Source: a virus. From it: a stretch of 64,000 nt of DNA. Positions 15,201 through 51,146 of this stretch are shown piece by piece. Every line of letters starts with the position of its first letter. Position 1 is the stretch's first letter. Below the pieces are notes generated by a model. It was not told where the DNA came from, searched no databases, and saw only the letters and a program-made list of their open reading frames with translations. The position numbers and the translations under genes are program-made. The stretch is from positions 128,001 through 192,000 of IMG/VR virus record IMGVR_UViG_3300037010_002844; one strand, 5' to 3'.

Positions 15201-15240
15201 GCTCGAAAAAGTTGGGCGACCTGAAAGTCTGCTCGGGCAT
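12226..15240 (-). CDS. tail sheath protein, paralog A (T4 gp18-like, 1004 aa)
   Basis: The N-terminus (PAGVVGTANRGPAFVPVTVG...LTYLRVLGAG) and the C-terminus (LDRVNVRRLLLEVKR...VVVPTRVIEYIAIDFIITNSG) are both homologous to paralog B and to T4 gp18. Confidence 0.9.
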   Translation of the reverse strand: MPEQTFRSPNFFEREIDISTPTPVGPVGTPAGVVGTANRGPAFVPVTVGNFDQFIATFGNLDPKLFGPYAVNEFLKHRSALTYLRVLGAGANATQSDIANTLQTGRVLSAGMHLDGTPAVDDKLGRHNGAIQFLAAQHTLQSDEAYGIPMFTDNDSYSGSTVNLVRGMVMLPTTARLMVLDGNGTAVGAFNGSNVDSALMVGGKFKLAISSTLGNAFWNTDGNPGVRIFTASLNPTSPDYFAKILNTDPDKFVQEQHLVYADFPVDDELATATVVGVLSGSNNTSSTSGDKTLPMRKVFGAFDTRYRAPSTTYFISQPFGTTEYDLFKFEALDDGEYANNLFKIAITDLKASLDDSNPYGTFTVQIRDWNDTDTNPLVLEMFPGCSLDPMSDHYIGKLIGDRKVSYNFDTTLDSERRVVATGKYPNVSQYVRVVIADQVERALVPQKSLPFGFRGAVVPKTNDLLTDASPSSATARLAGVLGVGSASSLSGSIIPPVPFRTKVTKGDAPAGAAWLGQPGSTELTLSQFYWGVKFERNTLPLNPNLINDKNGLLESYTKFMGIPKLDALVSGSGADQLNNNKFTLAKVALSNGALTDITSSVQDHMKEAAYIRNGKLDLTNYTIKDPVLGPRVTLATLLAQGSASDFNRFSQFTKFITFMAGGWDGVNVLDRDARRMNDKASSFDAGGGAAVGYSAPGLGYNPTGTGQQNATVASYKTAIDIMTDPLVVNTNILALPGIRESFITEYALNKVRDYGLAYYVMDIPSYDDSSNRLYDDSAARPSIDQTANQFDARALDNNYAGTYYPDVFVDDATNRRRVKVPASVAAMGALAFNDRVAYPWFAPAGFNRAALDFVTNVSVRLNVPDRDRLYDSRINPIATFPRLGFVIYGQKTLQINKSALDRVNVRRLLLEVKRIIMGIAQKLVFEQNTPEVRNKFVADAILQLGLIQSQAGVEAFQVIMNETNNTQEDIDLNRLRGRIVVVPTRVIEYIAIDFIITNSGVQFV

Positions 15241-22972: not shown

Positions 22973-24822
22973 CAGGTCAGCTGGCCGTTCACGCCCTGGT
23001 AGGTGACGCCGTAGCTACCCGTGGCGTTCAAGGCAGCGCCAGACTGATTGACGATGACAATGCCCCACTTAGCAGGCAAGCGATCGACGCCGTAGTTGCG
23101 ACAGAATGAAATGGGTCCCGCAGTGTAGGTCTTCAGGTTAGCGTTAGCAGTGAGCTGCGCCAACAAGACTAGATTAGGAGGTGTTGACAAGGTCGCCGCG
23201 CCGTCGACACCAGACAGGCCTTCAGGATAAGTGACACCATCGACAGTGCCATAGCCGTAGACGTTGACGTATCCTGTGGTAGAAACTGCTGTCGTCGCGG
23301 TGGTGAACTTGATGAATAGCAGCACGTCCTCATAGAGGCTGACAGTGTTATCGACTGCAGCGCTCTGGCGGGCTGCTGACGAGCCCAAGCTCGACAGAGT
23401 GATGGGCAGCACTACACCAGATGGGCCATACTGCGGCACATATCTGCCCGCAATGGGCTGAGGGACCATGCTGCCAGATGCAACGCCTGTCAACCTAACG
23501 AATAGAGGTTCGCCTGGAAAACTATTGGCGACCTCGATTCGATTGAGGTCATTCACCCACATCGCATTAGACGTCAAGACCGCTGAGGCACCCACAACCG
23601 CGGCGTTCTCAACCTGAAATGAGACATTCAACGGAACGTAGTTATCCGGGATCGCATTGGTGTGCTGTGCAACCGTGACACCGTTGATCGACAACGTGAC
23701 TGTAGCGCCTGTCGTGGTGATCAGGTACTGGTTTATTGCTGTTGTCAACGCAGAACCAGGTAGGGTGACCGTGGTGCTCTGCGTAACGTTGTTACCGGCA
23801 GCGGTGCGAAAGACAACCTGCGTGTTTCCCAACGTCGGATCAAAAATAACGACCGCGCGTTGACCGGATGCCGACAAAGGCACGTCAACGATCTCAACAA
23901 GACCAAACCACGGTGTCTGGTTCGGCACACGAGAAGTACATGCTACACGAGTATTGATGACCAGCGGCCCGTAGTCGACGAATCGATTAGCTGCGACAAT
24001 GGCGCCATTGCCCAAACTGTTGGACAATGTCATGTTTGAGTTGACATTGGCAATGCTACCGCCCGAAGACGACATCAACATCCATTGTGAGTAAATGCCA
24101 CCATTGCCAGTGGTGCCCGGATACGGCGAGACCAGTTCTAGTTGAGTATCGTTGCTGATTGATCTGACCAATGTCCAAGCAGAATCAGGATCAACAGTCC
24201 TCTTAATGTACTGCTGCGTGTCAAGTTGACGCGCGAACAGTGATCCGATGCCATTGACGTAAGTTGAACCCGACGTGAACGTGACAGTGCCACTAAGTGG
24301 CAACGTCAACGAGCTGATGAAGTTGTCGCGGAAGGATCCTTCATCCGTTAGTATCGGACCACGTGTCCGAAGTGATCCACCCGAGTCAACCAGAAGAGGT
24401 GCTGGAACTCTTATGTCAAGATTCTTTGGGTCTGGATAGCTACCGCCTTCAGCATCGGCCTGAGAGACGCCGGCGTCCTTTGAGAACACAACCAGGTTAA
24501 CGCCACCGAACGAAGGCGAAGATCCCGCGACTGTCCAGCTGACGAGCACCGTCGGAGTGATCGACAACAACAGTGTCACAGCCCCCGACGTGCCCGTCGC
24601 GGTGATCTCGGCAGACGCGACCACTTTATCAATGACGGTTGTCTCATTTGACGGATCGATTTCAGACAACGTGAATTGAAGGATGGGCGCAGTACCAGTC
24701 ACAGCACCGGTGATGTTGTAGACAAGGACGACCTCACCCGCCGGTCCGGCGCGGAAGACGTACGATCCATTGGAGGTGATCGTACTGTTAAGCAGTACCT
24801 GTTCAACCTTCACGGTGCTCAT
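22972..24822 (-). CDS. putative tail fiber / receptor-binding protein
   Basis: 616 aa, strongly Ser/Thr/Gly/Val/Asn-rich, with no enzymatic motif. It overlaps its neighbours by 1-4 nt. Confidence 0.35.
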   Translation of the reverse strand: MSTVKVEQVLLNSTITSNGSYVFRAGPAGEVVLVYNITGAVTGTAPILQFTLSEIDPSNETTVIDKVVASAEITATGTSGAVTLLLSITPTVLVSWTVAGSSPSFGGVNLVVFSKDAGVSQADAEGGSYPDPKNLDIRVPAPLLVDSGGSLRTRGPILTDEGSFRDNFISSLTLPLSGTVTFTSGSTYVNGIGSLFARQLDTQQYIKRTVDPDSAWTLVRSISNDTQLELVSPYPGTTGNGGIYSQWMLMSSSGGSIANVNSNMTLSNSLGNGAIVAANRFVDYGPLVINTRVACTSRVPNQTPWFGLVEIVDVPLSASGQRAVVIFDPTLGNTQVVFRTAAGNNVTQSTTVTLPGSALTTAINQYLITTTGATVTLSINGVTVAQHTNAIPDNYVPLNVSFQVENAAVVGASAVLTSNAMWVNDLNRIEVANSFPGEPLFVRLTGVASGSMVPQPIAGRYVPQYGPSGVVLPITLSSLGSSAARQSAAVDNTVSLYEDVLLFIKFTTATTAVSTTGYVNVYGYGTVDGVTYPEGLSGVDGAATLSTPPNLVLLAQLTANANLKTYTAGPISFCRNYGVDRLPAKWGIVIVNQSGAALNATGSYGVTYQGVNGQLT

Positions 24823-26129
24823 CTGATCTCCAACCAGGTCATGTCAGCCTTGACCTGCGTCTTGCCCGCGCCCAAGTTCGAGGCCACAACTGTCAAGATG
24901 TCGTTGGCGTTTACTCCTATGCCCAAGAAACCTGCGTTGCGCATGATTCGACCGTACACTTGGAAGAACTTCTGCATGTCAATTGTCACCACGCCAAGGT
25001 CAGAATTGACGACGCCGCGGTACAAGACCTCGCCACCGGTGAATCCAGTGGCAGCAACATCGTAATCCACCAAACTGGTATTGCCCGAAGAGTTGAATGA
25101 AGCGCCCGTCAACACGGGATTAGCGATGATGCGGAAGGCAATCGGATAACCTTGTGTGCTGATTGACAACGACTTGGGTTGAATGATGCTGCGATTGGTG
25201 ATGCCGTTGTACGTTGACTTGGGCCTGATCGAGAGGACAGGGGCTTCAACCTGAGTGATCAACACCGAATTTGTGTTGCCCACGCCATAGACCCAGTGTG
25301 CAGGTTCAACAGTCTGAGCCTGTGCCGCCACACGAGCGCAGATCAGATCGAGATAACCAGCAGACGACGACACAAGATTCGTCACCTTGGCCTGCACTGG
25401 CAACTTAGCCGTACGCATGTATGGCAGCGTCAGGGTGTTGGCGTGCTTCGACTCGTGGACCAAGATGTCATCAATGAAATAACGTGTGGTGCCGACGCCG
25501 AACCACTGCACCTCGATCTCGTATAGGTTGCCCTTCGAGACATTGAGGTTAAGACCACTGGCGCCAAAGCCATTGACCGGGTCCTTGCTGAAGGCACTCT
25601 GCGAGATGACGGTCTCGACGACTACACCCGTCGCGTCAGACCTCTCGACGATGTTGAAGGACGTACCATTGAGACGAAAGAACAATCCGTTGTTGTCATC
25701 TACGTAGCCCCAGTCCCTGAGCTGGCCTGCCTGGCCGGTGTCAGAATTGATAACTGACATTCCGATCAGCTGAGTGTAACCTGCCTGGTACTTGTAGTAC
25801 GTGTTGGTCCTCAACGTTGCAGATGAACCAGAGGTGCCGACGACAGCTACACGAAGTGCTGACTCTGCGGGAACGTGAGTCACAGAACCCGCAGACGCCG
25901 TCAGCACGTCCCAGAGGCGAGTGTCGAGCTCATACTTGTTGGTGAGGTCCGCAAGCAGGTATAGGCCTGCAACGCGGAGCTCATCTGCAACAGTGGCGCG
26001 GATGTTGCTGCCGAATGAGTCGGCCAGCGTAGACTTGAACGAACCCGTGACCTGCGCCGAGACGGGGTTCGTCGAGGTGCCGATTGGGTTGCCGTTGATG
26101 TCTGTCTGTACCGGGCTCTGTAGCGGCAT
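24819..26129 (-). CDS. putative tail fiber / baseplate protein
   Basis: 436 aa, beta-rich composition, co-oriented in the fiber-like block. Confidence 0.35.
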   Translation of the reverse strand: MPLQSPVQTDINGNPIGTSTNPVSAQVTGSFKSTLADSFGSNIRATVADELRVAGLYLLADLTNKYELDTRLWDVLTASAGSVTHVPAESALRVAVVGTSGSSATLRTNTYYKYQAGYTQLIGMSVINSDTGQAGQLRDWGYVDDNNGLFFRLNGTSFNIVERSDATGVVVETVISQSAFSKDPVNGFGASGLNLNVSKGNLYEIEVQWFGVGTTRYFIDDILVHESKHANTLTLPYMRTAKLPVQAKVTNLVSSSAGYLDLICARVAAQAQTVEPAHWVYGVGNTNSVLITQVEAPVLSIRPKSTYNGITNRSIIQPKSLSISTQGYPIAFRIIANPVLTGASFNSSGNTSLVDYDVAATGFTGGEVLYRGVVNSDLGVVTIDMQKFFQVYGRIMRNAGFLGIGVNANDILTVVASNLGAGKTQVKADMTWLEIR

Positions 26130-33763: not shown

Positions 33764-34192
33764 TCAATCTCTGAATTGCATCGTCTCGAAATCATGACCT
33801 GCGTGCACCTGTCTGAAGTGCCATTCACCGTCAGATTCGACCCAAACTTTACCGTCGTCAGACACAATGTCAACATCGAACATTACACCGTCGATGGACA
33901 CCTGCTTGTGTCTCTTGAATCCTCGAGACCTCAGCAGTTCTGCCAAGGCGCGTTCTGCTTTTAAGGAAGAATGACGATTATCAACTCTCGATAAAAGAAA
34001 TCGATGCCGTAGCTCAACGTCTTGAGCAAGACGTTGTTTCATTGAGTTACTTTTCTTCTCACTTGATTCTTGCGTGAACTTACGACGAGCTGCACACGCC
34101 TTGGAACATGTTTTCTTGACGTACACTTTTCGTTCCGGTGAAAACAACACCTGAAAAGTAGTGCCACACTCACACGTGCGCTCTTCGGTCAC
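33764..34192 (-). CDS. DUF559/Vsr-like endonuclease-fold protein with N-terminal zinc finger
   Basis: C-terminal LLRSRGFKRHKQVSIDGVMFDVDIVSDDGKVWVESDGEWH matches the DUF559 restriction-endonuclease-like pattern (R..........D.D......E.DG..H). N-terminal CECG...CSKAC. Confidence 0.5.
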   Translation of the reverse strand: MTEERTCECGTTFQVLFSPERKVYVKKTCSKACAARRKFTQESSEKKSNSMKQRLAQDVELRHRFLLSRVDNRHSSLKAERALAELLRSRGFKRHKQVSIDGVMFDVDIVSDDGKVWVESDGEWHFRQVHAGHDFETMQFRD

Positions 34193-34402
34193 GAGCGTCT
34201 TTTCACCGCACCTCTTTGCAGTGGAGGCGCGAGCGTTCTCTTTGATCTTTTCAAGGCCTTCTTTGAATACGCTTGGGGCTTATGTTGCCACCTCACGTGG
34301 TTAGCTTTAGCTTGAAAAGTCTCAAAGAGAAGTTCACATTCATCACATCGTCACATGACAATAACTACACGTCATTTCCGTGGAGGTGATCAAAATAGAA
34401 CA

Positions 34403-34774
34403 TGGTGGAGGCGCCCGGAATCGAACCGGGGTCCGTAACAGATCCTCTGAGGACCTCATCCACAGGCTTGGTCCGTCTTGTTGCTCAACCTCCGGACGGG
34501 TCTAGCGACGCGAAATTTAGCGAGCTGGTCACCAACTCGACACTACGTTTTACGTCCAGTGCTTTGACGTGTTCCGCTTAACGTCCGGTTCCCCGACGTT
34601 TTCCCTGGCTTTCTGTTTCTAGGCGCCAGGACCCCATTCCTCAGGCCGCGAGGGCGAGAGGAGCAACACCATTGTCGTTGGCGTTTATACGTCACATGGG
34701 TTTTGAACTGGTCCCTCGTGCACCAGTGCCTGCAGTCTACAGTCTCAATGCCACGTCGAAGCCTAGTCGCCCCC
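34403..34774 (-). ncRNA. ssrA: tmRNA (ssrA), one-piece, about 372 nt
   Basis: Minus-strand RNA starts GGGGGCGACUAGGCUUCGACGUGG (compare E. coli GGGGCUGAUUCUGGAUUCGACGGG). It ends ...GGACCCCGGUUCGAUUCCGGGCGCCUCCACCA, a T-arm plus a 7-bp acceptor stem with a G3:U70 wobble. The internal tag ORF after ...GUAUAAAC reads GCC AAC GAC AAU GGU GUU GCU CCU CUC GCC CUC GCG GCC UGA = ANDNGVAPLALAA (34641..34682), ending in the canonical ALAA. Confidence 0.9.
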
Positions 34775-34836
34775 GTGCATTTGACCGAACAGCTCAGTTG
34801 TCAAAGATCGATGGCCGTAATTATGGCCTCACAGCG

Positions 34837-35214
34837 TCACTTCTTACCGCGAGGTTTTCCACCGGGCGGTTTGGGGTGCCCGCCCTTGCGCGGGTAAGTT
34901 CCCGCCTCAAGGTCGTCATCGTCCAACGTCAAGAAGTTCTCGGGCCGGGCCATCTGCCGCAGGTCCTCGTTCTTCTTCTCCAGCTCTGTAATCTTCTCCT
35001 TCTGGACCTTTTCCCAGCTATCGAAAAGTTCATCGTCTGTTGGGCCAGCGCCTGATCTCGTCAGCGAGGAGATGATGTAGGCCCGTAGACGATTGTGAAT
35101 CTCACGCAAGGCTGCTTCATCTGAGCCTACCGCCACCGACAATTCGCTCTCAAGTGCCCGGACCAGTAAGTTGTACAAGGCCAGGAACTCTTTCGGGTGA
35201 ATATTCAACTTCAT
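34837..35214 (-). CDS. hypothetical protein
   Basis: 125 aa, co-oriented, between the tmRNA and the head module. Confidence 0.35.
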   Translation of the reverse strand: MKLNIHPKEFLALYNLLVRALESELSVAVGSDEAALREIHNRLRAYIISSLTRSGAGPTDDELFDSWEKVQKEKITELEKKNEDLRQMARPENFLTLDDDDLEAGTYPRKGGHPKPPGGKPRGKK

Positions 35215-35217
35215 TAA

Positions 35218-35817
35218 TCAGCTCCGGCCCTGGAGCCTGTATGTCGTGTCGACAGTCAGGAGCTTCGTCCACTGCTTCGGGAACTTGGGAACGTTGACTG
35301 TGATCCAGTCGTGATTAACGTAGAGATCAATCGATCTCCCATGACGTCGAACGAAGCCCACGTCCTCGTACTCGGTGTAACCGTCGAGCACTACATCGAC
35401 CTGGTCGCCTTCCACGTGTTCAAATTCGAGTGACTGAGAGTTGTCGGTCTTGACGACCGGCAGTGCATGCAGCACGGATGCCGAGATCGTCTCTTCCACG
35501 TTAGGCAGGGAACTATCATCTTCCGCCTCTTTGGCGACGTCTTCGTAGACCTCGTCCTCATCCTCATCGTCCATGATGAGGCTGCCATTTGGCTTGGACT
35601 TCAGGCGCACGCGCTCTTCGGAAACGTGACAATCATCGCTGCACTCGTGGTCGCACTCGTCAACATCATCTTCAACATCAAGGATAAAGTCGTTGAGCCG
35701 ACCACGAAGATTGCGAACACGCTCGGTAATCGTTGACGATTCAACCAGCGACCGTGTCTGTTCGTAGTGAAACAGTACCTTCGCCAAAAAGAGCGCCTCT
35801 ACCTTAGTCAGTCTCAT
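35218..35817 (-). CDS. hypothetical acidic protein
   Basis: 199 aa, with an Asp/Glu-rich central region. Confidence 0.35.
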   Translation of the reverse strand: MRLTKVEALFLAKVLFHYEQTRSLVESSTITERVRNLRGRLNDFILDVEDDVDECDHECSDDCHVSEERVRLKSKPNGSLIMDDEDEDEVYEDVAKEAEDDSSLPNVEETISASVLHALPVVKTDNSQSLEFEHVEGDQVDVVLDGYTEYEDVGFVRRHGRSIDLYVNHDWITVNVPKFPKQWTKLLTVDTTYRLQGRS

Positions 35818-36795: not shown

Positions 36796-38697
36796 TCAGA
36801 TGACGTTCATGTCCAACACTGTGACGGTCCCGTAGAAGTCCGTGCGGACCATCTTCTTGCCGTATCGGGTCATGACACCCTTGCGCGGCGTGAAGTCTTC
36901 CGGCGCAAAAATCGTCGGGGTGACGATCAGTGGCACGTACGGGGCGTACACGTAACCCGTCTCGAGATAGCTGCCGCCCTTGTAGCCGATCAGGATCTTG
37001 TTGCGGGGGAAGTACGGGTCCTTGTAGACCGTGAAGCGGTTGGACACCGTGCCGATCGCTTCCGCACCAATGGTAAACGGAGAGCCAACCTGTCCCTCGC
37101 CATCGATCGAGAACTTCGGCTTGTACAGCGTGGAAGCCTCGAGGATGGTGCAGACGTCCGGGCCGGTGACCATAAAGTTGGCCGAGCCGCGAAGGGTCTT
37201 ACGGTGAATGGTGTTCGCCACGTCGATGATCGTCTCGATCAACGTCTCGTACCACTCGCGGACCGTGCCCGTGAATTGCGGGCCGATACTCAAGGAGCTC
37301 GCCAGCTGCTGACGGTCACCCGTCAGCTTGTTCACGAAGCGGCCCGGCGAACGCGACCAGAAGAAGTTCGCGCCGTTGGCCTGAGAGACGAGATCATTCA
37401 AGATCTCGCGGTCGATCTCGAGAGCGATCTGCTCCGAAAGGATGCTCGTCAGCTCGACCTCAGCGTCCATCGAGTGGTACGCGTTGAGGTCCTGTGCGAG
37501 TTCAGGCGACCAGCGAGCGCGGAGCCTGCGGGTTGTCGCGGTGATTGCGATCGACTCGATCTTGATATCGATCTCGGGGATGGCCGGAGCCGGGGTCACC
37601 GAGAAGTCCGTCTCGAAGGAGGGAACAGTCAAGGTCGCGCCCGAGCCACCATCGACCATGAGGGCGTCGGCGATCGCCATCGAAACCTTCTGCGTCGCCG
37701 TGTTCAGCGTTGGAACCGAGCCGCCGTTCGACAGCTTCAGCACGAACTGAATGTGCGAACCATTCAGCGGGTTCGGCGTGAAGACCGAGCCGTTCCAGTC
37801 ACCGCGCTTGTTCAGACGACGGAGGTTCAGCAGGCCCTTGCCCGACTGGTAGGAGTCACCCCACTCAACGGCGCCGTTGTTCGCCTGGAAGCCGAAGAGA
37901 GCGATCTGCTCCGGAGCAAGGAAGTCACCCTTCGGGATCTGGGCTGCGATTGCCGCGACCGAGAGGTGGACGAAGGTTACATCCAGGAGGTTGCTGCCCA
38001 GGTCGACCTCAACCTGCGGATCGAACTGCAACATGCGGGCGTTGGTGCCCGAGAAGTCCGTGCTCGAGGCCACGATGCCGCCGGCGGCCCAAGCGTTGTT
38101 GGCACCGGTCCATGCGCCAAGGTCGAGGTTCGAACCCGAGACACCCAGCGAGGCCGAGTGCACCTTCGAGTAACCGACATTCACCAGGTCGTACATACCA
38201 CCCGTGGCGAGTGATCCAGACTGGATGCCCTTGCCGGTCGGGTTGTTGTAGATCGACTGGCCACGCTGGTAAGTCTCGTAGGCCGAGGAGTTACTAAGCT
38301 GCGAGCCAGCATCACCACCAACGTTCGAGCCGTAGGTGTAATCGAGATAGAAGATCAGACCAGACGGTAGGCTCATCGGCTGAATCGAGACAAGCTCGTT
38401 TGCAACGAGGCCACCGAAGACGCGGCGGACGATCGGGAAGGCGATGTTCGAGAAGCCCTGGATCTGACCCGAGGAAGCGACAGCGCCGCCGCCAGTGGAC
38501 AGGGAGTTCGACTCCTTCAGGACCTGGGCAGCCTGGTTCTCCAGGAGCTGCGCCATCGTCTCGCGCTTGAAACCGTCGAGACCGCGGAGCAAGCCAGTAC
38601 GGCTCCACTTCTCAACAAGACGGGCACGCTCAGCACCGACGTGCTTCTCGCGGATGCCCTGGGCCAGCTGGTCCAGTGTAAAAAACTTTGAAGACAT
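36796..38697 (-). CDS. major capsid protein (T4 gp23-like)
   Basis: VSIQPMSLPSGLIFYLDYTYG vs T4 gp23 GVQPMNSPTGQVFALRAVYG. SPELAQDLNAYHSMDAEVELTSILSEQIALEIDREI vs gp23 SIELAQDLRAVHGMDADAELSGILATEIMLEINREV. GYKGGSYLETGYVYAPYVPL...TRYG vs gp23 GYKGPNEMDAGIYYAPYVAL...TRYG. Confidence 0.9.
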   Translation of the reverse strand: MSSKFFTLDQLAQGIREKHVGAERARLVEKWSRTGLLRGLDGFKRETMAQLLENQAAQVLKESNSLSTGGGAVASSGQIQGFSNIAFPIVRRVFGGLVANELVSIQPMSLPSGLIFYLDYTYGSNVGGDAGSQLSNSSAYETYQRGQSIYNNPTGKGIQSGSLATGGMYDLVNVGYSKVHSASLGVSGSNLDLGAWTGANNAWAAGGIVASSTDFSGTNARMLQFDPQVEVDLGSNLLDVTFVHLSVAAIAAQIPKGDFLAPEQIALFGFQANNGAVEWGDSYQSGKGLLNLRRLNKRGDWNGSVFTPNPLNGSHIQFVLKLSNGGSVPTLNTATQKVSMAIADALMVDGGSGATLTVPSFETDFSVTPAPAIPEIDIKIESIAITATTRRLRARWSPELAQDLNAYHSMDAEVELTSILSEQIALEIDREILNDLVSQANGANFFWSRSPGRFVNKLTGDRQQLASSLSIGPQFTGTVREWYETLIETIIDVANTIHRKTLRGSANFMVTGPDVCTILEASTLYKPKFSIDGEGQVGSPFTIGAEAIGTVSNRFTVYKDPYFPRNKILIGYKGGSYLETGYVYAPYVPLIVTPTIFAPEDFTPRKGVMTRYGKKMVRTDFYGTVTVLDMNVI

Positions 38698-42162: not shown

Positions 42163-42666
42163 TTACCCCATCGCCTTTTTCGAAAGATTTTTGTGGGCCA
42201 TCCTGCGCTCCATTGGGGAGGCACGATCGAGCATCAAGACACCATTTAGGTGGTCGACCTCGTGCTGCACAATTCGCGCCAAGAAACCGTTGAGGAAGGC
42301 GTGTTGAGTCTGCCCGGAGACGTCCTGGTACTCGATTTCAATCTCCGTCGAACGAGCAACATTGACAGCAACTCCAGGAATCGACAGGCAACCCTCTGGC
42401 CCGAACTCGACTTCCTTGGAAGACCAGACAATCACGGGATTGACCATGAAGATCATCTCACAAGCTTGTTCACCTGCTGACGGATCGACAACAATCAAAC
42501 GTTGATTGATGCCAACCTGTGGAGCGGCTAGGCCAACGCCGCGTGAGGCGTACATGGTCTCGGCCATCTTCTCGAGTTGGATCTTGAGCTCGGGCCCAAA
42601 GTCATCGACACGGTCGCAGGTCGCCTGCAAGCCCTGGTCGGGGAAGAGAACGACCTGCATGATCAA
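42163..42666 (-). CDS. def: peptide deformylase
   Basis: All three PDF motifs are present: GVGLAAPQVG, EGCLSIPG, QHEVDHLNG. Confidence 0.9.
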   Translation of the reverse strand: MIMQVVLFPDQGLQATCDRVDDFGPELKIQLEKMAETMYASRGVGLAAPQVGINQRLIVVDPSAGEQACEMIFMVNPVIVWSSKEVEFGPEGCLSIPGVAVNVARSTEIEIEYQDVSGQTQHAFLNGFLARIVQHEVDHLNGVLMLDRASPMERRMAHKNLSKKAMG

Positions 42667-43073: not shown

Positions 43074-43736
43074 TTACCTCTTGTACGACAGGATGTCGTT
43101 TAGAACCCGGTCAATCCGGTCGCTGCGGTTGAAGATCCGCTTCAGCTCGCCATCGCTTAGCTGGCGACCTTCTGGAATCATGAAGGCACCAGGCGTTGAA
43201 GGCTCAGAAACGTAGTCCCAACAGATCAACTGAAAGTCATCCTGAACCACGTAGTAGTCGCCATCCTTCCGAGTTGACCCCACGCCCCGCGAGGAGATAC
43301 CCAACTTGACGTTGCTCTCGGCCAACGACTGCAGGATCTGACCCGAGGGGGTATTCAGGATCTCGACGGTTCCCATCACTGTTCCGTTCTCGAGGTAGGC
43401 CTCACGGACAATGTGGGAAACGTTCTTCAGGTTGATGACCGAGGAATCAGGGTGATCGAGCTCACCAAGAGCACGATTCTCAATGATGAACTTCTGGTAG
43501 TTCCTGACCTCGCGCTCCAACACACGGAGCGGATAGATTCGGCCGTTCTGGTTTAGGGTGTCTGCCTTCTGCAGGATTCCCTTCATCAGGATCTTCTTGA
43601 CAGCGGGCACCTTGACAGCGTTGCCCTGAGAATCTTCAGTAATGGTCTCAGGCTTGACGACCTCGGTGACCAGCTTGTAGTCAAAGATGTCGTAGGTATT
43701 CAGTAGCCTCTGGTTGCTCATGACATCACTCCTCAC
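43074..43736 (-). CDS. prohead core protease (T4 gp21-like)
   Basis: QNGRIYPLRVLEREV ... GELDHPDSSVINLKNVSH vs T4 gp21 LNGRIYPKEVLDNAI ... GEFDHPDSHSINLKNVSH. Confidence 0.9.
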   Translation of the reverse strand: MRSDVMSNQRLLNTYDIFDYKLVTEVVKPETITEDSQGNAVKVPAVKKILMKGILQKADTLNQNGRIYPLRVLEREVRNYQKFIIENRALGELDHPDSSVINLKNVSHIVREAYLENGTVMGTVEILNTPSGQILQSLAESNVKLGISSRGVGSTRKDGDYYVVQDDFQLICWDYVSEPSTPGAFMIPEGRQLSDGELKRIFNRSDRIDRVLNDILSYKR

Positions 43737-44580
43737 CGTTTAGTTCGGTACTCAACTTGGTGTAAAGCATGAAGCGAGTCACTGTCTCATCATTGACCAC
43801 ATCGAGGGTCTCGGAGATCAGGCGCTCTCGGGCCTCGTTCAGCTTTTCATTGACGTACTTGTTAGCGTTTGCTGCAGTGTACTCGTCCATTCGTTGCAAC
43901 AGGTCAGACTTGATCTCTGCCAGTTTCTTGTGAATGACGGTCGGATCATCGTGAGCGGCCGAAAAGACATACGCCTTGACGAGTGACTTCTGATCATCGT
44001 TCAGGACACCAGCGTACTTCTCGTTCAACTTCTTTGTCATGACCTTCATCAACAGGCGAGCAGTTCCGTTAGACTCTTCACTGATGACATGATCATCAGC
44101 CTCTGGTCGTTCAGACACCAACCACTGGACCAACTGGTCCTCGTAGGTCGCCATCCTCGACAAGTCCTTGTCGGTCGATCGCCAATCATTGAGCAGCGTC
44201 TGCACGGTGGCATACATCCTGTACTCATTGATCTGTTGATCATAGAAGTTGTCATCTTTGATCGAGTAGTTGATGTGCTTGATGAGCAGCGACTTCTCGC
44301 GGTCCAGAGTCTGGATGTCGTGAGATCGGGCCGCCGAGCGCGCCTCGTTCAGGATGTTAGCAGCGACTGCCTCTGACGTCACCTTCGTCTTAATCAACGA
44401 ATTGACGAGCCTAAACTCTCGGTACAGCTCAGAACCAGGCTTGAAGTGCTTTCGGAGGATCTTCAACGCCACGGCAGACTTCTTCTGGTTGCCCTCGACG
44501 AGGGCGGTCGAAATGGTGCGGACAAGGAACTCGTAGAGTAGTCCAGCATTACGCTTCTTGTTGTGGCCCTTGCTGCTCAT
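43726..44580 (-). CDS. hypothetical head protein (prohead core / gp67-gp68 position)
   Basis: 284 aa, lying between the portal and the protease. The N-terminus contains LVEG (an L-x-E site). Confidence 0.35.
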   Translation of the reverse strand: MSSKGHNKKRNAGLLYEFLVRTISTALVEGNQKKSAVALKILRKHFKPGSELYREFRLVNSLIKTKVTSEAVAANILNEARSAARSHDIQTLDREKSLLIKHINYSIKDDNFYDQQINEYRMYATVQTLLNDWRSTDKDLSRMATYEDQLVQWLVSERPEADDHVISEESNGTARLLMKVMTKKLNEKYAGVLNDDQKSLVKAYVFSAAHDDPTVIHKKLAEIKSDLLQRMDEYTAANANKYVNEKLNEARERLISETLDVVNDETVTRFMLYTKLSTELNGEE

Positions 44581-47500
44581 GACTCGTCATCCTCGTTGTC
44601 ATCATCGATGATAAGTACATCGCCTTCGTTAATGGCGCTGCCTGTCAGACCCGGTTCGATCGACTCATCAATCTCGATGTTGATCTCTTGGTCCTCTTTT
44701 ATCAAACCATTCTTCGATCCGCGCTCACCAGGGAACTTCTTTTCCCAACTTAGCAACGCAGCGACCACGTCGCCAGGAAGCCGCTGCTGACGTGCGACGC
44801 TTTCGCCGAATGGGTCGCTGACGACAGACTTCAAGAAGTCGGTATCGTAAGGATCCTCCATCGCTCGATTGTCAGTCGAAGTCATCTTCCTGAAGTCAGG
44901 CATGTGCGTCTTAGACGGTCCGTGCGTCAAGTGACGGCTACGGTTGTAGAGCACGCGGTCAAGCTGCTTCTGAGCCTTGACTGGAATCTCGACGTCCTTC
45001 ATGGCGCCGACGCGGAGCCCAAATGTCTCATCGTCATCATTGTCGTCAGCTGACGTCAGGAGCTGAACACCAGGCGTGGTCTCCTCTTCTGGTTCCTCAC
45101 CTGCGTTTTCCTCGGGAGGCGTCTCTTCTCCGCCTGCGGGTTCCTCACCGCCTCCACCTTCATCGCCGCCGCCAAAGAGGTCTTCGCCTCCCCCGCCGCC
45201 ATCCCCTCCAGCACCCGCGCCGGACTCGATGGCTGCGTCAACGACCTTATCTTTCATGCGATTCTTGTCGATCTGCTTGCACTCCTGATCGTTGAGGCCC
45301 CAGATCTCCTTGCGGACAAAGTCCTTATCAATGAAGCCTTCAGGGGCCGAGCCGCCGATCTCAAACTTGGCACGCCACAGTTCTAGCTTCTGTTGCTGTG
45401 CGACAGTCGACGGGTTGGACAGATGCAACGTAAAGTTCTGCAGATCATCACCGTCATACCCGTGTGCATAGAGGTGGATGATCGCCAGCTTGTTGAGCTC
45501 GGCAAGGATCGTCTTCTGAATGACAGCAATGGTACGCGAGAACCTGATGTCCTCCTGCGCCAACGTGGCCTTGCTGCTAAGCATCTCATCGTAACCCAAG
45601 TAGGCGCGTGGGATCTTCAGAGCAGCAAACAGCTTCTTCTGAATGTAGGCCACGTCCTCGACGGCGGCAGTGTTCTGGCCTCCCGCGAGGGTTTCAATGC
45701 GAGTTCCAGACTCTTGGCCACGAACTGGGATGAAGTAGTCCTCATCGACGCTCTGAAACGCAAATATTAGTCCTACACCACCACCACCACCATGAGGTGA
45801 TTGTGCACCTTTCGCAGCATTTTCACCACCCACGGCAAGATTGTGCCATCGATCAACGGTAACACTGTACACATCTTCAGTTGTATCGATGAGCTCAACA
45901 GAAATGACGACGTGGTTGTTCGCACCGTCAGAAGCAACAACGCCGGTGTCAACGTTGTTGACGTACTGACGACCCAAGGCCGCAGGATGGTGCGCAGCCC
46001 AAACTGCCTTCCAGTTAAGGTAATCGGCGATGATGAACTTACCGACGACGTTTTTATGCAGCGATTTCGCGAGATCGTGAGCCAGATGAGCGTTCGTTGC
46101 TGCGTAGAGCTTCATGAACGTTACGTCGGACTTCAACCGTCTCAGGAACGCATCGAGCCCCTCGAACCTACGAAGCGATCTGATGACGTTGATAACGTAG
46201 ACCTGGCACTCAGGCGACCAAACATAGCGCATGTTCTGTCGGGCACGCTCCCTTCGTTCAGGGTCAGCCCACATCGTAGACATCGCTTCAGAACGTTTGA
46301 CGTAATGCTCAGCGTTCGTTATCAACTGCAGGTTGCCAGTTGAGTTGTTGAGCTTGTCAAAGTTGACGTGATGAATTGTCTTTCCCTGCTGTGAGATGTG
46401 CCCGTTCCGATAGACCTCGAGCCCGAACGCATGAGCCGCGATCAACTCGTGGGTAAAGATGCGTGTTCCGAACGATGGATCGAGCACCTTTTCGTAACAG
46501 TGCTTGTCAACTTCAGAAACTTCAGCGCCTGACATCGGTGCATATGTAACGTGCAACGGCATCAAGCTGTCGCCCGAACGTAGATCCTTCGCTTTAACGT
46601 GAGAACCATCACGAAGCATCATCCTATGTTCAGGTGTGACATTGATGACGCCGCCGTCGTCCAGCGTCACCCTGACAAACTGTTTCGTAGTACCTGACTT
46701 CCCGGCCCAGATCACCTTGCCGGGTACCAACCTACCCCCCGCTTCGAGATCAAGGGAATAAGTCTCATGGTCTCGGCGCCCTTCATTCCACTCCTTGACT
46801 AGCTCATCGATCCGCAGCATCCTACCATCCAACAATGGTATCTGAACGTTCGCTGCGAAGCACAGTGGATTGTACCTGAGGTCCACACGACCAGAAGAGC
46901 GATCAATGACCTGATTCGTCCTGAGGTTCTTCCTCTGCTCTTCAACATAAAGAGGCACGTCCTGCGCTGGAACGTTGGCAACGTCGATGTAGAAGACGCG
47001 GCGTTCAGGTGCCCTGACGACGCGGTACACCAACATTGCATCTTCGATGAGGATCAACTGACGCCAAATGCGGCGGGCAGGCTCAATGATCGATGACCCG
47101 TAAGGCAAGAACATGTCGTTGCCCAAGAGCCGAAAGTGAGTGATCTCCCAGTTCTCGAGGACTCGATTACCTAGGGTGACCCAGCGATACCTGACCGCAA
47201 ACGGATCGTCACGATCGTAGTTCTCTTCGCGCTCGATCTCGTTGACAGGGATCGGGAACGCTGAGACGACTCCGTACGTTGGAGAAACGTCATTATAGAG
47301 GAAGAAGTCGCCGTACTTAACAAGATTGCGCGCCCAGGATCGCAGGTTGAACTCGGTGTTCAACGTATTGTAGAAAAGGTCCTCGAGCACCTCGCGAATC
47401 TTCTCATTGTCCGAGTAAATGTGGAGGACGCGGCCTTTCTCATCCTGTGCACACGTTTCGTCGGCATAGATGTCAAGAGCAGCCGCGATCTCAGGAGTAT

Positions 47501-49088
47501 TGTGCGAGATCACACTATCGGTGGCAAAGTTCTTGTACCCGTCAACGGTGAGGTCGTAGAGAGGGATCTCACCGACATACTCAACGGAAACTACCTTACA
47601 GTTGTTGTAAGTCTCCTGAAAGTCACTAAACTTCTTGAAGCCATTCTGCGACAACCTGGAGATAATCGTGTTCTTGTTGGCGCCAAGCTTTTCGGCGAGA
47701 CGAGGCAACGTCACGCTGGGTGTATATGCATCACAGATCTGTTGGAACGTCAGTGAATTACCGTTCGAACCTCGTGGACGACCGCCCTTTCGGACGCTCT
47801 TAATCTGATTGACGGTCACTTCCTCGTCGTGATACCCCATTGTTGAACGCAACTCTGTCCACGACATCCGGGCGCGGCGGGCCAAAAACTTGTCAAGTAC
47901 GTTGACAGTGCAACCGAGCTTAATGCACAAAGAACGCTTCGTGTCACCAGCAGTCATCGAAGACTTCAATAGCTCGAGGCTCAAGTCCCGTGTCAGTAGA
48001 CCGGGTCGGTTGTTGATCATAGAATCAGCTTGACCGCCAGCATATGCCGCAACAAATTTATTGAACGTTGAGAATCCGTGGGTCGCCAATCGTTCATAGA
48101 TCAGGTTCCATGTGACATCAAGAGCATTTGCAATCGCCGGCATGCTGAAACCAACACGTTCAGCAGTCTCTAGGATTCGAGCAAAAGTCACATCCCTGCG
48201 AGCGCCAGGAGCATTGTCACGCATCCGAGCTGCATGGTTCTTCTTGAACTCTTCGATCCACTCACGGTTTTCGGGTGCCCACTTCACCCCGTTGTTGATC
48301 GCGGCGTGGTAACTGTCATGGGCAGACTTCGTCATGATCCTGAGATTTTCAGGACGATTATCAGTCTTAATGAAGTTGATGTGGTGGACAACCTCATCTT
48401 CGTTGAGCTGACGACCGGCAACCCACTCAGCGATCAGTTGGTGCTCTTTGGTCCAACCGCGGAACCTATCGTCCATCGTGTAGATCCACGAGTAGCCAAG
48501 GGTGCCTTCTTTGGCATCAGCAAAGATGTCTTTGCGGTAGAAGGGCATCATTGCATCGCCGGGTTTCAGGTCCTCAACACGACGGTATGTACCGTCACGA
48601 AGCATCAGTCGATGTTCCGGTGATGCAACAATCTCTTTTCCATTATCAAATTTGATCTTCCAGGCACTATCGACACAGGTCTGACGAGCCTGTTTACCGA
48701 ACGCCGGAACGATGCGCTTCAAATTGTGATCGTACGAATAGACAATGAAGATGTGATCCGGATTTTTCTCACACTCTTGCGCTAGCTCACCTATAGTCTT
48801 GAAACCATCTGAGGTTGCGATCTTAGTGTCAATCGCAAGTGAATACTCCATTTCTTGAAAGTCCTGATAGCGCATCAAGCGCTCGCTCAGGTTGTAGGCA
48901 TTTGCCGTGATGGTCGCGTAGGTCGGCGCCAGCGACTTCTGAAAGAGCAACGTGCCTGACGACTTAGTCTTGTCAGCGACCGCGATCGTCGTGTCGGCGG
49001 TGCGGATCTTCTTCTTGATGACAGGACCACTTCGAAACAGTCGCGTCAGTCGTCGGAAAAGGCTTTGAGGTGCTTCTTTTTTTGCCAT
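44577..49088 (-). CDS. portal protein (T4 gp20-like) interrupted by two intein-like insertions; long acidic Gly/Glu-rich C-terminal extension
   Basis: 1503 aa. It sits immediately upstream of the gp21-like protease, at the gp20 position. Two Hint domains carry HNH modules (see the mobile_element features). The extein segments total about 550 aa, plus a roughly 250-aa acidic tail (GGDGGGGGEDLFGGGDEGGGGEEPAGGEETPPEE...). Confidence 0.7.
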   Translation of the reverse strand: MAKKEAPQSLFRRLTRLFRSGPVIKKKIRTADTTIAVADKTKSSGTLLFQKSLAPTYATITANAYNLSERLMRYQDFQEMEYSLAIDTKIATSDGFKTIGELAQECEKNPDHIFIVYSYDHNLKRIVPAFGKQARQTCVDSAWKIKFDNGKEIVASPEHRLMLRDGTYRRVEDLKPGDAMMPFYRKDIFADAKEGTLGYSWIYTMDDRFRGWTKEHQLIAEWVAGRQLNEDEVVHHINFIKTDNRPENLRIMTKSAHDSYHAAINNGVKWAPENREWIEEFKKNHAARMRDNAPGARRDVTFARILETAERVGFSMPAIANALDVTWNLIYERLATHGFSTFNKFVAAYAGGQADSMINNRPGLLTRDLSLELLKSSMTAGDTKRSLCIKLGCTVNVLDKFLARRARMSWTELRSTMGYHDEEVTVNQIKSVRKGGRPRGSNGNSLTFQQICDAYTPSVTLPRLAEKLGANKNTIISRLSQNGFKKFSDFQETYNNCKVVSVEYVGEIPLYDLTVDGYKNFATDSVISHNTPEIAAALDIYADETCAQDEKGRVLHIYSDNEKIREVLEDLFYNTLNTEFNLRSWARNLVKYGDFFLYNDVSPTYGVVSAFPIPVNEIEREENYDRDDPFAVRYRWVTLGNRVLENWEITHFRLLGNDMFLPYGSSIIEPARRIWRQLILIEDAMLVYRVVRAPERRVFYIDVANVPAQDVPLYVEEQRKNLRTNQVIDRSSGRVDLRYNPLCFAANVQIPLLDGRMLRIDELVKEWNEGRRDHETYSLDLEAGGRLVPGKVIWAGKSGTTKQFVRVTLDDGGVINVTPEHRMMLRDGSHVKAKDLRSGDSLMPLHVTYAPMSGAEVSEVDKHCYEKVLDPSFGTRIFTHELIAAHAFGLEVYRNGHISQQGKTIHHVNFDKLNNSTGNLQLITNAEHYVKRSEAMSTMWADPERRERARQNMRYVWSPECQVYVINVIRSLRRFEGLDAFLRRLKSDVTFMKLYAATNAHLAHDLAKSLHKNVVGKFIIADYLNWKAVWAAHHPAALGRQYVNNVDTGVVASDGANNHVVISVELIDTTEDVYSVTVDRWHNLAVGGENAAKGAQSPHGGGGGVGLIFAFQSVDEDYFIPVRGQESGTRIETLAGGQNTAAVEDVAYIQKKLFAALKIPRAYLGYDEMLSSKATLAQEDIRFSRTIAVIQKTILAELNKLAIIHLYAHGYDGDDLQNFTLHLSNPSTVAQQQKLELWRAKFEIGGSAPEGFIDKDFVRKEIWGLNDQECKQIDKNRMKDKVVDAAIESGAGAGGDGGGGGEDLFGGGDEGGGGEEPAGGEETPPEENAGEEPEEETTPGVQLLTSADDNDDDETFGLRVGAMKDVEIPVKAQKQLDRVLYNRSRHLTHGPSKTHMPDFRKMTSTDNRAMEDPYDTDFLKSVVSDPFGESVARQQRLPGDVVAALLSWEKKFPGERGSKNGLIKEDQEINIEIDESIEPGLTGSAINEGDVLIIDDDNEDDES
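45801..46862 (-). mobile_element. intein 2 in portal gene (HNH type), C-terminal junction uncertain
   Basis: Begins CFAANVQIPLLDG (block A) with block B VINVTPEHRMMLRDG. The HNH module is HHVNFDKLNNSTGNLQLITNAEHY. Block G-like VYSVTVDRWHNLAVGG is present. No canonical terminal HN+(C/S/T) was found, so the end is placed approximately (residue 1083-1096 of the ORF). Confidence 0.5.
47499..48842 (-). mobile_element. intein 1 in portal gene (about 448 aa, HNH homing endonuclease type)
   Basis: Begins SLAIDTKI (block A with a Ser1 nucleophile) and has block B VASPEHRLMLRDG. The HNH module is HHINFIKTDNRPENLRIMTKSAHDSYH. Blocks F/G read VEYVGEIPLYDLTVDGYKNFATDSVISHN, followed by extein +1 Thr. Confidence 0.65.
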
Positions 49089-49165
49089 GATGTTCGCCCG
49101 ACTATTTCAGTCGCGGCTCAGGGTTAATAGTAAGGTTCACTGCTGCAGCGTATACGGTAGCGTGA

Positions 49166-49477
49166 TCAAACGTCCCCTTCACCCTTCACGGGCTTCAAAG
49201 AAACCTTCTTTGGTTCGACCTTCTTCTTCTCGACGTAGGATCCAGGCGTACTTACCATGTCCTCGAGAATCTTTTCCATCTGTGCAAGATGAGGCGTCAG
49301 CGCATTGATCATCGGCCCGTTGGCTGACTTCTGAAATACCTCGACCGCCGCCAACAGCTTGGAGGCGCCATTGACGACTTCACGAATTGATGCATGGTCG
49401 ACGGCCTCGTTGACCGAGGAAGACAGTTCCTCAGCAATGATCTTCCGAAGACGTGGTAGGGTAATCTTGTTGCTCAT
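49166..49477 (-). CDS. small protein, N-terminal motif family member (MSNKITLPRLRKIIAEEL)
   Basis: 103 aa. It has the conserved upstream element CAATACTTACAC and an AGAAGGT RBS. It lies between the terminase and portal genes. Confidence 0.55.
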   Translation of the reverse strand: MSNKITLPRLRKIIAEELSSSVNEAVDHASIREVVNGASKLLAAVEVFQKSANGPMINALTPHLAQMEKILEDMVSTPGSYVEKKKVEPKKVSLKPVKGEGDV

Positions 49478-49517: not shown

Positions 49518-51146
49518 TCACCGTAGCAACCAGCTAAAATCGCTCACGTCAGCATTCTTGATCTGCGATGGATCGCGGGGCTTGTGAACGTTGTAAGGAT
49601 TAACGCCCCTGATGTTAGGATTGATCAGCGGCTGTGCTGACTGAATGTCACCTGGCATCTGCGCTGAGTCCCTGCGCGCGACCTGCGTGGCCTTCAACAT
49701 GGCCATCGCCATCTCATGAGCCTGTTCATTGACTCCTGAACCGCCGTTGGTCAGCCAAATGCCAATCGCTAGACTCATAATCAAGTCGTCATGACTGTCA
49801 CGGGTGGCCTGAGCCTTGGACCCCTGCCAGATGAAGGCCTGCATCTGATCGTAGAAGCGTTGCGAGTAGATTTTGACAATCTTGTTGCGGATGATCTCCT
49901 CGAGCTTCGCCAGGATCTGCGGACGAGTGTTACCTTGCGTCTCAAAGCCAGGAATTGCCTCTGGGTCGCTCGAGATGTACTCGAACATGTCGCCTGTCAT
50001 ATTGCGATAATACAGACGCTTGTAGCCGATGTCTCTGAGTCTGACAGCCGTCATGTAGCCAAAATTGTTACGCTCTGGGCACAGCAAGGCAGTGTTATAC
50101 TTCTTGCCGTAGTCAGCTAGAAGGTCGGCCAACTTGTCAGGCGGAATCTTGCCCATGTATTCTGCGACGACTTCACAATCATTTACGTCAATGACGTGCA
50201 TCGTCGAATAGTCGGCAGCGTCTCCACGGGCCACGTCAGATGAAATAACATACTTCTTGCCCGGCTCAGGATCAGACCAGATCCAGACAGCATTCTGCGG
50301 TCCTTCTTTGCGAATCGGACTGTCGATCATGCTCCTGAGATAGTCCATCTCCGTGGGTTGCAGGAATGTGTCACCTGACGAGATGAAGTCGCAAAGGAAC
50401 TCCTGGGCAACTTTTCGCTTTGGCAGGTTCTTGGTTTCCTTGTCAAACCATGCCTGATCGTGCTCGGGATGAACGTGCCATGGAAGATTGATAGTGTTGA
50501 ACTCATTGACCTGTGCTATTGCGTCGGTCCACAACTTGTAGTACATGCCGCCGACGCCGTTAGGCGTGGAAATAATGATCGCAGAACCGCCCGTGGAGAT
50601 AGTCGGATAGAGACCGGTCCAGATCTCTTCAAAGTCTCTGATGAATGCGGCCTCATCGACGATGAGAAGTGACAAGGCCTCCGAACGACCAGCGTCTGGT
50701 GAGGTCGGTACGGCCGCGATGACTGACCCATTGGCAAACGTGATCTGTTGCTTGGTCGATTCGAACTTGGTGAGGAGCAACCACTTGGGCAGGCCGTCAA
50801 GGATTGTCTTCACCTTCTTGATGAAGTTCATGGCGGTCTGCAACTTGGTAGCGATGACCAGGACGTTCTTGTCCTTCTTGAAGATCGCGTACCAGACGGC
50901 GTAGGCCGCGGTGACGGTTGACAGGCCCAGCTGACGTGACTTCAGGACGATGTTGAAGCGATTCTCTTCAAATGCCTTGATGCAGTCATCCTGAAAGTAG
51001 TAGGTGTCGAACGGGATCAGGCCCCTCTTGGGGTGCTGGATCTTCGCATAGTTCTTCATGAAGTAGACGGCGTTTTTGCCGCACTTCAGAATCTCGCGGA
51101 CCTGTTCTTCTCTACCGAGCGGACCGTTGGACGTGGCAATTGACAT
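49518..51146 (-). CDS. terminase large subunit (T4 gp17-like)
   Basis: ENRFNIVLKSRQLGLST vs gp17 NRFNACNLSRQLGKTT (Walker A region). LLIVDEAAFI (Walker B) vs gp17 IYIEDCAFI. IIISTPNG vs gp17 IITTTPNG. The Walker A is the deviant type with an N-terminal Lys (KSRQLGLST), lacking the canonical GK(T/S) Lys. Confidence 0.9.
   Translation of the reverse strand: MSIATSNGPLGREEQVREILKCGKNAVYFMKNYAKIQHPKRGLIPFDTYYFQDDCIKAFEENRFNIVLKSRQLGLSTVTAAYAVWYAIFKKDKNVLVIATKLQTAMNFIKKVKTILDGLPKWLLLTKFESTKQQITFANGSVIAAVPTSPDAGRSEALSLLIVDEAAFIRDFEEIWTGLYPTISTGGSAIIISTPNGVGGMYYKLWTDAIAQVNEFNTINLPWHVHPEHDQAWFDKETKNLPKRKVAQEFLCDFISSGDTFLQPTEMDYLRSMIDSPIRKEGPQNAVWIWSDPEPGKKYVISSDVARGDAADYSTMHVIDVNDCEVVAEYMGKIPPDKLADLLADYGKKYNTALLCPERNNFGYMTAVRLRDIGYKRLYYRNMTGDMFEYISSDPEAIPGFETQGNTRPQILAKLEEIIRNKIVKIYSQRFYDQMQAFIWQGSKAQATRDSHDDLIMSLAIGIWLTNGGSGVNEQAHEMAMAMLKATQVARRDSAQMPGDIQSAQPLINPNIRGVNPYNVHKPRDPSQIKNADVSDFSWLLR

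Follow-up and report, generated by a model that had tools for sequence, protein, structure and literature searches.

Results

A Complete tmRNA Gene in the Structural Module of a Phage

The 64,000-nt stretch of viral DNA analyzed here, which we call the window (positions 128,001 to 192,000 of IMG/VR record IMGVR_UViG_3300037010_002844), very probably encodes a functional one-piece transfer-messenger RNA (tmRNA, or ssrA) lying in the late structural block of an uncultured T4-like jumbo phage. The one RNA gene that ARAGORN called in the window is a tmRNA, located at 34403–34774 on the minus strand. No Rfam family other than RF00023 passes its threshold anywhere in the 64 kb, and RF00023 aligns to the same coordinates over model positions 1–374, with a score of 93.1 bits vs. 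a gathering score of 47 (E = 5.9e-35). A sequence-only reading of the window had placed a complete tmRNA here without giving its strand, which is minus, and its coordinates and features are borne out by the full-length calls of both tools. The 372-nt gene, which ends in an encoded CCA and is further supported by covariation, has the standard, unpermuted order and is called one-piece by ARAGORN and Rfam, unlike the permuted tmRNA gene of Rhodobacter phage RcRudolph, which both recognize as such. It combines what is expected of a one-piece tmRNA: 1) the covariance-model score, 2) a tRNA-Ala-like domain, 3) a first pseudoknot (PK1), 4) a tag open reading frame (ORF) with its stop in hairpin H5, and 5) further pseudoknots. 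The PK2–PK4 segment aligns poorly to the general RF00023 model, with low posterior probabilities, and the number and sequence of the pseudoknots deviate from the Rfam consensus.

Among 25 distinct family sequences, identity drops to about 50–60% while the fold is retained; an alignment of 18 sequences was used for counting base pairs. The acceptor stem of the window tmRNA is GGGGGCG/CGCCUCC with G3:U70 and discriminator A, and its T-arm is CCCGG-UUCGAUU-CCGGG. The acceptor stem with G3:U70, the T-arm, and a UUCGACG box had been picked out at the outset, and all are read on the minus strand. G3:U70 is invariant (18/18 aligned sequences), and the T-arm is 97.8% paired, with compensatory changes in four of its five pairs. 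The tertiary pair between the D-loop and the T-loop covaries in all 25 sequences, G55 occurring with a D-loop AG (7/7) and U55 with GG (18/18). The seven G55 sequences span three different T-loop contexts, all with AG in the D-loop analogue. These noncanonical T-loops, with AG rather than GG in the D-loop, belong to the closest tmRNA relatives of the window. The T-loop is GGCAGUA in loci L003 (15234–15604), L098 (4082–4445), L099 (2744–3107), L100 (11979–12349), and L101 (960–1327), UGCGAUU in L085, and UGCAAUG in L087. ARAGORN misses most of these genes (L003, L098–L101, and L087), and the Rfam score of L003 falls to 48.6 bits.

The structure that we tested comprises nested helices and pseudoknot stems, written from the window sequence and from inspection of the alignment. 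In this structure, 84.3% of cells are paired vs. 35–45% when the partners are slid by one to three columns, a control that is biased toward the structure because the latter derives from the same sequence and alignment. Independent of that bias are the compensatory double changes, found in 56 of 97 pairs. None of 500 shuffles reached the observed values. PK1 (34693–34727, minus strand) sits directly upstream of the resume codon; its stem S1 (ACUGG/CCAGU) is 98.9% paired, with four of five pairs compensatory, and its stem S2 (CACGAGGG/CCCAUGUG) 92.9% paired, with four of seven. PK2 (34604–34636, minus strand), which resembles the terminal pseudoknot of alpha-type tmRNA, has a main stem CCUGGC/GCCAGG that is 95.6% paired and compensatory in five of five pairs, and a conserved loop GCCUAGAAACAGAAA. 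From PK2 to the 3' strand of P2 runs a chain of H-type pseudoknots, PKa, PK3, PK4a, and PK4b (34471–34599, minus strand). Both stems covary in PK3 (94 and 91% paired) and PK4b (100 and 81%), as they do in PK1, while support is moderate for PKa (58–82% paired) and PK4a (70–74%), where it is probably limited by the alignment. Helix P2 is 100% paired in P2a and 93% in P2d; a candidate helix P2b (UUGAG/CUCAG), paired in 48%, is unsupported and was discarded. The pseudoknot region, whose failure to fold had been named beforehand as the outcome speaking against a tmRNA, folds and does so with covariation support.

The tag frame, GCC AAC GAC AAU GGU GUU GCU CCU CUC GCC CUC GCG GCC UGA, occupies 34641–34682 on the minus strand (tmRNA positions 93–134). 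It starts at resume codon GCC, which is preceded by U(-5)A(-4), encodes ANDNGVAPLALAA, and closes with a UGA stop within H5, so that the in-frame ORF ending ALAA-stop described earlier is also the one that ARAGORN reports. We take U(-5)A(-4) to be the counterpart of E. coli U85/A86, which help set the resume frame in that species. A frame of 13–15 codons is intact in 23 of the 25 family members. Since the pattern used for finding tags preselected ANDN, we relied for this block on the invariants of alignments A1 and A2, where the ANDN codons never change in their first two positions and vary in the third. The final residue is Ala in 23/23 tags, with all four synonymous codons in use, and the conserved tag codons show 570 synonymous vs. 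140 nonsynonymous differences. Family tags have fixed ends, an ANDN start and an (L/I/V/H)(A/V)A finish, around a variable middle, a pattern that fits a role in tagging for proteases. These comparisons indicate that the tag behaves as a translated sequence.

Taken together, the alignments show that purifying selection maintains the RNA fold, the alanine identity element, the tRNA-like elbow, and the encoded peptide of this phage tmRNA.

The tmRNA Gene Belongs to the Phage Clade

We used the major head protein (MCP) as an anchor and took 80 related IMG/VR loci with 64–86% identity, out of a database holding at least 563 MCP relatives. Sequence was sufficient in 40 of these loci. In 13 of them, ARAGORN, Rfam, and an nhmmer profile place a tmRNA on the MCP strand, 1.9–7.6 kb downstream, and among the 10 closest MCP-anchored relatives 8 carry it. 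A pattern built on the PK1 signature finds the tmRNA on 22 viral contigs, and a second pattern finds some 50 family members in metagenomes. The gene order protease, peptide deformylase (PDF), MCP, p125, tmRNA, p74, methyltransferase recurs in upwards of 20 viral contigs that are independent of one another and in some 50 from metagenomes, and a separate Joint Genome Institute (JGI) contig record shows the identical arrangement of p125, tmRNA, and ORF142, the 142-aa ORF that follows the tmRNA in the window. Pairwise identity of the tmRNA tracks that of MCP (Spearman 0.76; Mantel r = 0.75, P = 2e-4), which is what vertical inheritance would produce. These results indicate that the gene is complete and vertically inherited within the phage clade.

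The gene content of the window, named by PHROG and Pfam scans, is that of a phage. Nearly all long ORFs from 4.2 to 64 kb are on the minus strand and tightly packed, and GC content is uniform along the window (0.51–0.61). Structural and head genes flank the tmRNA on both sides, as the sequence-only reading had stated, and they share one strand; the ORFs directly adjoining it encode hypothetical proteins. Upstream, at a distance of about 2 kb, is the gene for the gp23-like MCP (36796–38697, minus strand; phrog_138, E = 9.9e-71). Between it and the prohead protease gene (43074–43736, minus strand) sits that for PDF (42163–42666, minus strand; phrog_2890, E = 1.2e-42), a second translation-linked gene of the structural module that is conserved across the family. 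An exact match to the PDF protein occurs on contigs of 0.2–1 Mb, the longest being 309,481 nt, and family members are found on contigs of 116–370 kb, which together with the phage gene content points to an uncultured T4-like jumbo phage as the source. Across 50,697 deposited phages, nothing reaches 50% identity to its large terminase (TerL) or MCP; the closest are unannotated uncultured phage genomes of 484 and 595 kb, Flavobacterium phage immuto, and Microcystis phage Mel-JY01. As a route to the host, PDF was rejected: its nearest named cellular matches, in Acidobacteriota and Gemmatimonadota, are about 45% identical, which is too weak, and they disagree with the alpha-type signal described below.

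Neighborhood of the tmRNA Gene

At 34798–34805 on the minus strand, 24 nt upstream of the mature 5' end, is a conserved TTTGACAA element similar to a sigma-70 -35 box, and most family members have C(T/C)TTGACAA 20–33 nt upstream of theirs. The element has the appearance of a -35 box in a sigma-70-type promoter dedicated to this gene, and read-through from the late structural operon is an equally possible source of the transcript. We discarded the idea that TTGACAA marks a general class of phage promoters, as most other copies in the window are intragenic and the element seems specific to the tmRNA gene.

Directly upstream of the tmRNA is p125, a 125-aa ORF (34837–35214, minus strand) with no Pfam or PHROG match, which is present in 21 tmRNA-bearing loci vs. 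1 locus without tmRNA. Its AlphaFold model (predicted local distance difference test score, pLDDT, 70) has three helices followed by a disordered tail that is acidic and then basic (YPRKGGHPKPPGGKPRGKK). We considered whether p125 might be a divergent SmpB and rejected this candidate, because it matches no Pfam or PHROG family and its model is all-alpha; the SmpB fold is a beta-barrel. The N-terminal region of p125 looks paralogous to that of the neighboring 199-aa ORF (35218–35817, minus strand).

No SmpB was detected by Pfam in 50 window ORFs (among them the tmRNA neighbors and most of those of about 130–250 aa), by six-frame phmmer in the window and all related viral loci, or in 72 metagenome loci. 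The E. coli SmpB query was shown to be exact by a scan of viral contigs with an SmpB alignment, whose 80 retained loci were without exception prophage edges of E. coli-like type. As none turned up in the window, the phage presumably relies on the SmpB of its host.

Directly downstream of the tmRNA, ORF142 (33764–34192, minus strand) has weak DUF559 and restriction endonuclease-like matches, whose Pfam E values (0.0017 and 0.0036) both fall short of the curated cutoffs. It adjoins the tmRNA only in the window and in L086, L091–L093, and L098. A short CACCUCCAC repeat lies about 14 nt past the tmRNA 3' end (~34372–34389), a 9-nt near-repeat of that end seen in the window and L093. ORF142 and the near-repeat may together be a cassette for a free-standing homing endonuclease directed at the tmRNA locus. 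Other small RNA genes occur at this position: the tmRNA-less loci L030 and L031 (15537–15609) and L033 (15919–15993) have an opposite-strand tRNA-Glu in about the same slot, 3.7–4.1 kb past MCP, and in L094 a tRNA-Thr (4373–4447) directly follows the tmRNA. The slot seems to collect small RNA genes.

The rest of the module also runs on the minus strand. In the direction of transcription, the first genes encode a primase, an SbcC-like nuclease with its phosphoesterase partner, and a TnsA-like endonuclease; TerL (49518–51146) and the portal (44577–49088) precede the protease. The 1,503-aa portal ORF has an HNH insertion: its portal match is restricted to residues ~1111–1284, and an HNH endonuclease domain lies at ~190–290, which may represent an intein or a fused homing endonuclease. 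Downstream of the tmRNA are a methyltransferase-like ORF, a virion structural protein (24819–26129), and a fiber-like protein, followed further on by a head–tail adaptor, two tail-sheath genes, a gp19-like tail tube, and a T4-type baseplate protein. The two tail-sheath paralogs stand in tandem (9055–12102 and 12226–15240), with about 1,000 aa each and the sheath domain in the C-terminal third.

Discussion

Our preferred reading is that this tmRNA rescues ribosomes during infection. It would be transcribed from its own TTGACA-type promoter and/or by late read-through, its 5' end would be matured by host RNase P, and host alanyl-tRNA synthetase would add alanine via G3:U70. Host SmpB and EF-Tu would then bring the RNA to ribosomes stalled on truncated or nonstop messenger RNAs (mRNAs), where translation would resume at GCC and append ANDNGVAPLALAA, with the ribosome released and recycled at UGA. 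The C-terminal LAA of the tagged product would send it to host ClpXP-type proteases. In E. coli, LAA is read by ClpX, and N-terminal residues of the AANDxxY type are read by SspB. The benefit would be that ribosomes are kept available and truncated products cleared in the long, translation-heavy infection of a jumbo phage, a need that would arise as host mRNAs degrade and host tmRNA possibly becomes scarcer. The coconserved PDF suggests the same investment in translation.

These steps are drawn from the established trans-translation pathway, and several points weigh against ribosome rescue as the function. The search for SmpB in this phage covers 64 kb of a genome of ~300 kb, and no clear -10 box follows the TTGACA element upstream of the tmRNA. 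Absence of the tmRNA from 27 of the 40 informative relatives makes it dispensable for the clade. The minimum free energy z-score is just -1.72, although this is unsurprising since nested-only folding cannot represent pseudoknots, of which this RNA largely consists. Several family members have noncanonical T-loops, and in two of the 25, L100 (11979–12349) and L094 (3977–4349), UGA at the tag stop is replaced by UUA, so that the L100 tag would read on as ANDNGVAPFALAALGTGVPATLEQ... The UUA could reflect decay, sequencing error, or a changed tag. The lost stops and noncanonical T-loops suggest that some lineages may decay or diverge in function.

Among the alternatives, the one that survives best, though we regard it as unlikely, is that the tmRNA acts in anti-defense or modifies trans-translation rather than serving housekeeping rescue. 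It might rescue ribosomes stalled by abortive-infection RNases (toxins cleaving mRNA or transfer RNA, Cas13, or type III CRISPR RNases), or it might compete with host tmRNA or titrate SmpB and so shift which proteins are tagged. Such a role would suit a patchy accessory gene (13/40 loci), a distribution typical of arms-race genes, as well as tags with a variable middle between fixed ends and lineages with altered T-loops or a lost stop; a molecule of phage DS6A that consists only of the tRNA-like domain has been discussed as an SmpB-titrating inhibitor (PMC4131195). However, the window RNA has all canonical determinants and a standard LAA tag, which do not demand a noncanonical role, and no defense or anti-defense genes were identified beside the tmRNA. 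The trans-translation reaction would moreover be the same, the difference lying in the selective benefit only.

That the gene is a decaying passenger, captured from a host or another phage and no longer functional, is very improbable. The missing copies, the stopless L100 and L094, the odd T-loops, and the weak z-score would all be accounted for, but compensatory stems at ~50–60% identity, an invariant G3:U70, covariation of the D- and T-loops, and synonymous changes in the tag would not be expected under neutral decay. The odd T-loops are themselves matched by compensating D-loop changes and resemble a natural alpha-type loop.

The least probable reading, a host ssrA or fragment of it at a prophage or island junction or a host–phage assembly chimera, draws on ssrA being a classic integration site, on the many E. 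coli prophage contigs of IMG/VR that end at smpB-ssrA, and on islands being common beside tmRNA genes (PMC12595487), but the gene lies inside a same-strand phage module in DNA of uniform GC, with no smpB or housekeeping gene adjoining, and its junctions recur in dozens of independent contigs and in the separate JGI record. An attP/attL remnant of integration at the tmRNA 3' end was likewise rejected: a remnant of attP would be a 3' fragment only, whereas this gene is full length, Pfam scans show no integrase domain in the window ORFs screened, and a search of the window found no duplicate of the tmRNA 3' end as an att sequence beyond chance. The earlier argument that this is not a host ssrA serving as a prophage attachment site is thus upheld, and the chimera junction that it had allowed for is not seen.

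Phage tmRNAs are routinely annotated and seldom analyzed past the ARAGORN call. Here the comparative data show selection acting on the fold, the alanine identity, the tertiary pair of the elbow, and the peptide of the tag alike, and vertical inheritance together with a PDF gene. They argue that a jumbo-phage clade actively maintains ribosome rescue and protein maturation during infection. A defined tmRNA family is now available for experiments.

Comparison with Known tmRNAs

The sequence-only reading overstated its case in calling a phage-borne tmRNA rare. In the survey by Buchholz et al., 402 of 18,146 phage genomes (2.3%) carried tmRNA, and the 133 unique sequences included 53 of the two-piece kind (PMC9004378); tmRNA and SmpB are among the translation genes reported for huge phages by Al-Shayeb et al. 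in 2020 (PMC7162821). tmRNAs are also found in cluster C mycobacteriophages and Bacillus phage G (PMC4131195) and in Bradyrhizobium elkanii phages (PMC12656738). Phage tmRNA is therefore uncommon but already known, and what is new here is this family.

The huge phages are likewise large uncultured phages with translation genes that include tmRNA (PMC7162821). Genomes LR756508 and LR756511, from that kind of data set, give the best MCP matches, yet at 39–48% identity only, and no tmRNA was found in them within ~20 kb on either side of the match. Some huge phages encode SmpB, whereas none was found in this window, and the paper describing them contains no structural or evolutionary analysis of the tmRNA. 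The cluster C (Bxz1-like) phages and phage G, which are large lytic myoviruses, also have a complete one-piece tmRNA (PMC4131195, PMC1475703, PMC12484599). It is conserved within a phage cluster, and use of host SmpB is presumed, as here. These phages differ in host phyla and tags (that of phage G is AKLNITNNELQVA), and blastn against 50,697 phage records detected no nucleotide similarity to their tmRNAs, with one weak match overall; megablast of the region against the same records gave no match. E. coli ssrA shares with the window tmRNA the tRNA-like domain, G3:U70, PK1, a GCN resume codon preceded by U(-5)A(-4), a tag with an AND... start and an LAA end, and the H5 stop. The window tmRNA differs in being phage-encoded, with no smpB adjoining, and in having a PK2 loop motif that is missing from E. 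coli.

The single distant blastn match among deposited phages led to RcRudolph. Its tmRNA is of the two-piece alpha type (RF01849, 94.8 bits; RF04321, 103.6 bits) with tag ANDNVRMDAQALAA. This gene (L273 1230–1594; OP009285.1, ~49090–49454) overlaps coding sequence RCRUDOLPH_61, annotated as a hypothetical protein and probably a mis-annotation in the deposited record.

Scans for a one-piece counterpart in cells found none. The PK1 signature gave 86 matches in 185,579 representative bacterial genomes (one per species), none of them a tmRNA, and the alphaproteobacterial ones were rejected as donors because they are a conserved coding motif instead. In many Hyphomicrobiales (L104–L189), the pattern TTCGACN{24,36}GGYGCACGAGRGWCC coincidentally matches a coding segment, presumably an M24 aminopeptidase-like motif, which calls for caution in motif scans. 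The metagenome motif scan, which required the tag start, the PK2 loop, and one-piece spacing and included several short contigs without annotation, returned members of the family, further one-piece tmRNAs from phage-like surroundings (tail fiber, HNH, and PHROG-only families), and, by chance, a few genes of permuted order. Within the patterns used, it revealed no cellular one-piece counterpart, all annotatable one-piece matches lying in phage-like contexts. A second set of one-piece tmRNAs with the same PK2 loop occurs on metagenome contigs L283/L305, L285, L309, L311, L315, L322, and L326. Their tags mostly end in ...AAA (e.g., ANDNSVAAPLQAAA), that of L326 in LAA, and their phage-like contexts (tail fiber, HNH, and a possible Ro-like RNA-binding protein) are unrelated to the window family.

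We compared the family with alpha-type tmRNA using the printed RF01849 consensus and six permuted tmRNAs. The RF01849 type, which includes those of pelagimyophages and Melnitz (PMC9004378) and of RcRudolph, has in common with the window family 1) the acceptor stem GGGGGCG/CGCCUCCACCA, 2) tags that start with ANDN and end in AA, and 3) a post-tag pseudoknot with loop CCUNGNAACAGAA, shared with PK2. The alpha hallmarks that we checked were T-loop GGCGGUA, D-loop GAAAUAGG, and terminal pseudoknot loop CCUGGCAACAGAA. The window has the PK2 loop motif, while the D- and T-loop hallmarks are present only in sister lineages L003 and L098–L101, which have an alpha-type D-loop GAAAUAG and T-loop GGC(G/A)GUA. 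By eye, the 3' tRNA-like half of these lineages shows about 1 difference in ~30 positions from the RF01849 consensus. Unlike the two-piece tmRNA, the window family is unpermuted and made as one RNA, with an extra pseudoknot chain between PK2 and the 3' tRNA-like half; the PK1 sequence differs, the window T-loop is the canonical UUCGAUU, and the permuted order of acceptor piece, intervening sequence, and coding piece is not seen in the window gene.

It is conceivable, albeit doubtful, that the family represents a phage-restricted one-piece lineage specifically related to alphaproteobacterial two-piece tmRNA but retaining the unpermuted order. Such an alpha-type one-piece form could be a relic from before permutation, or a rejoined version whose new linker gained pseudoknots, for example at the coding–acceptor junction of a tandemly duplicated permuted gene. 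If true, this relationship would point to alphaproteobacterial hosts and to phage and host genes having occasionally swapped the tRNA-like domain, would offer a marker for predicting the hosts of these phages, and would bear on the origin or possible reversal of the permuted two-piece tmRNA.

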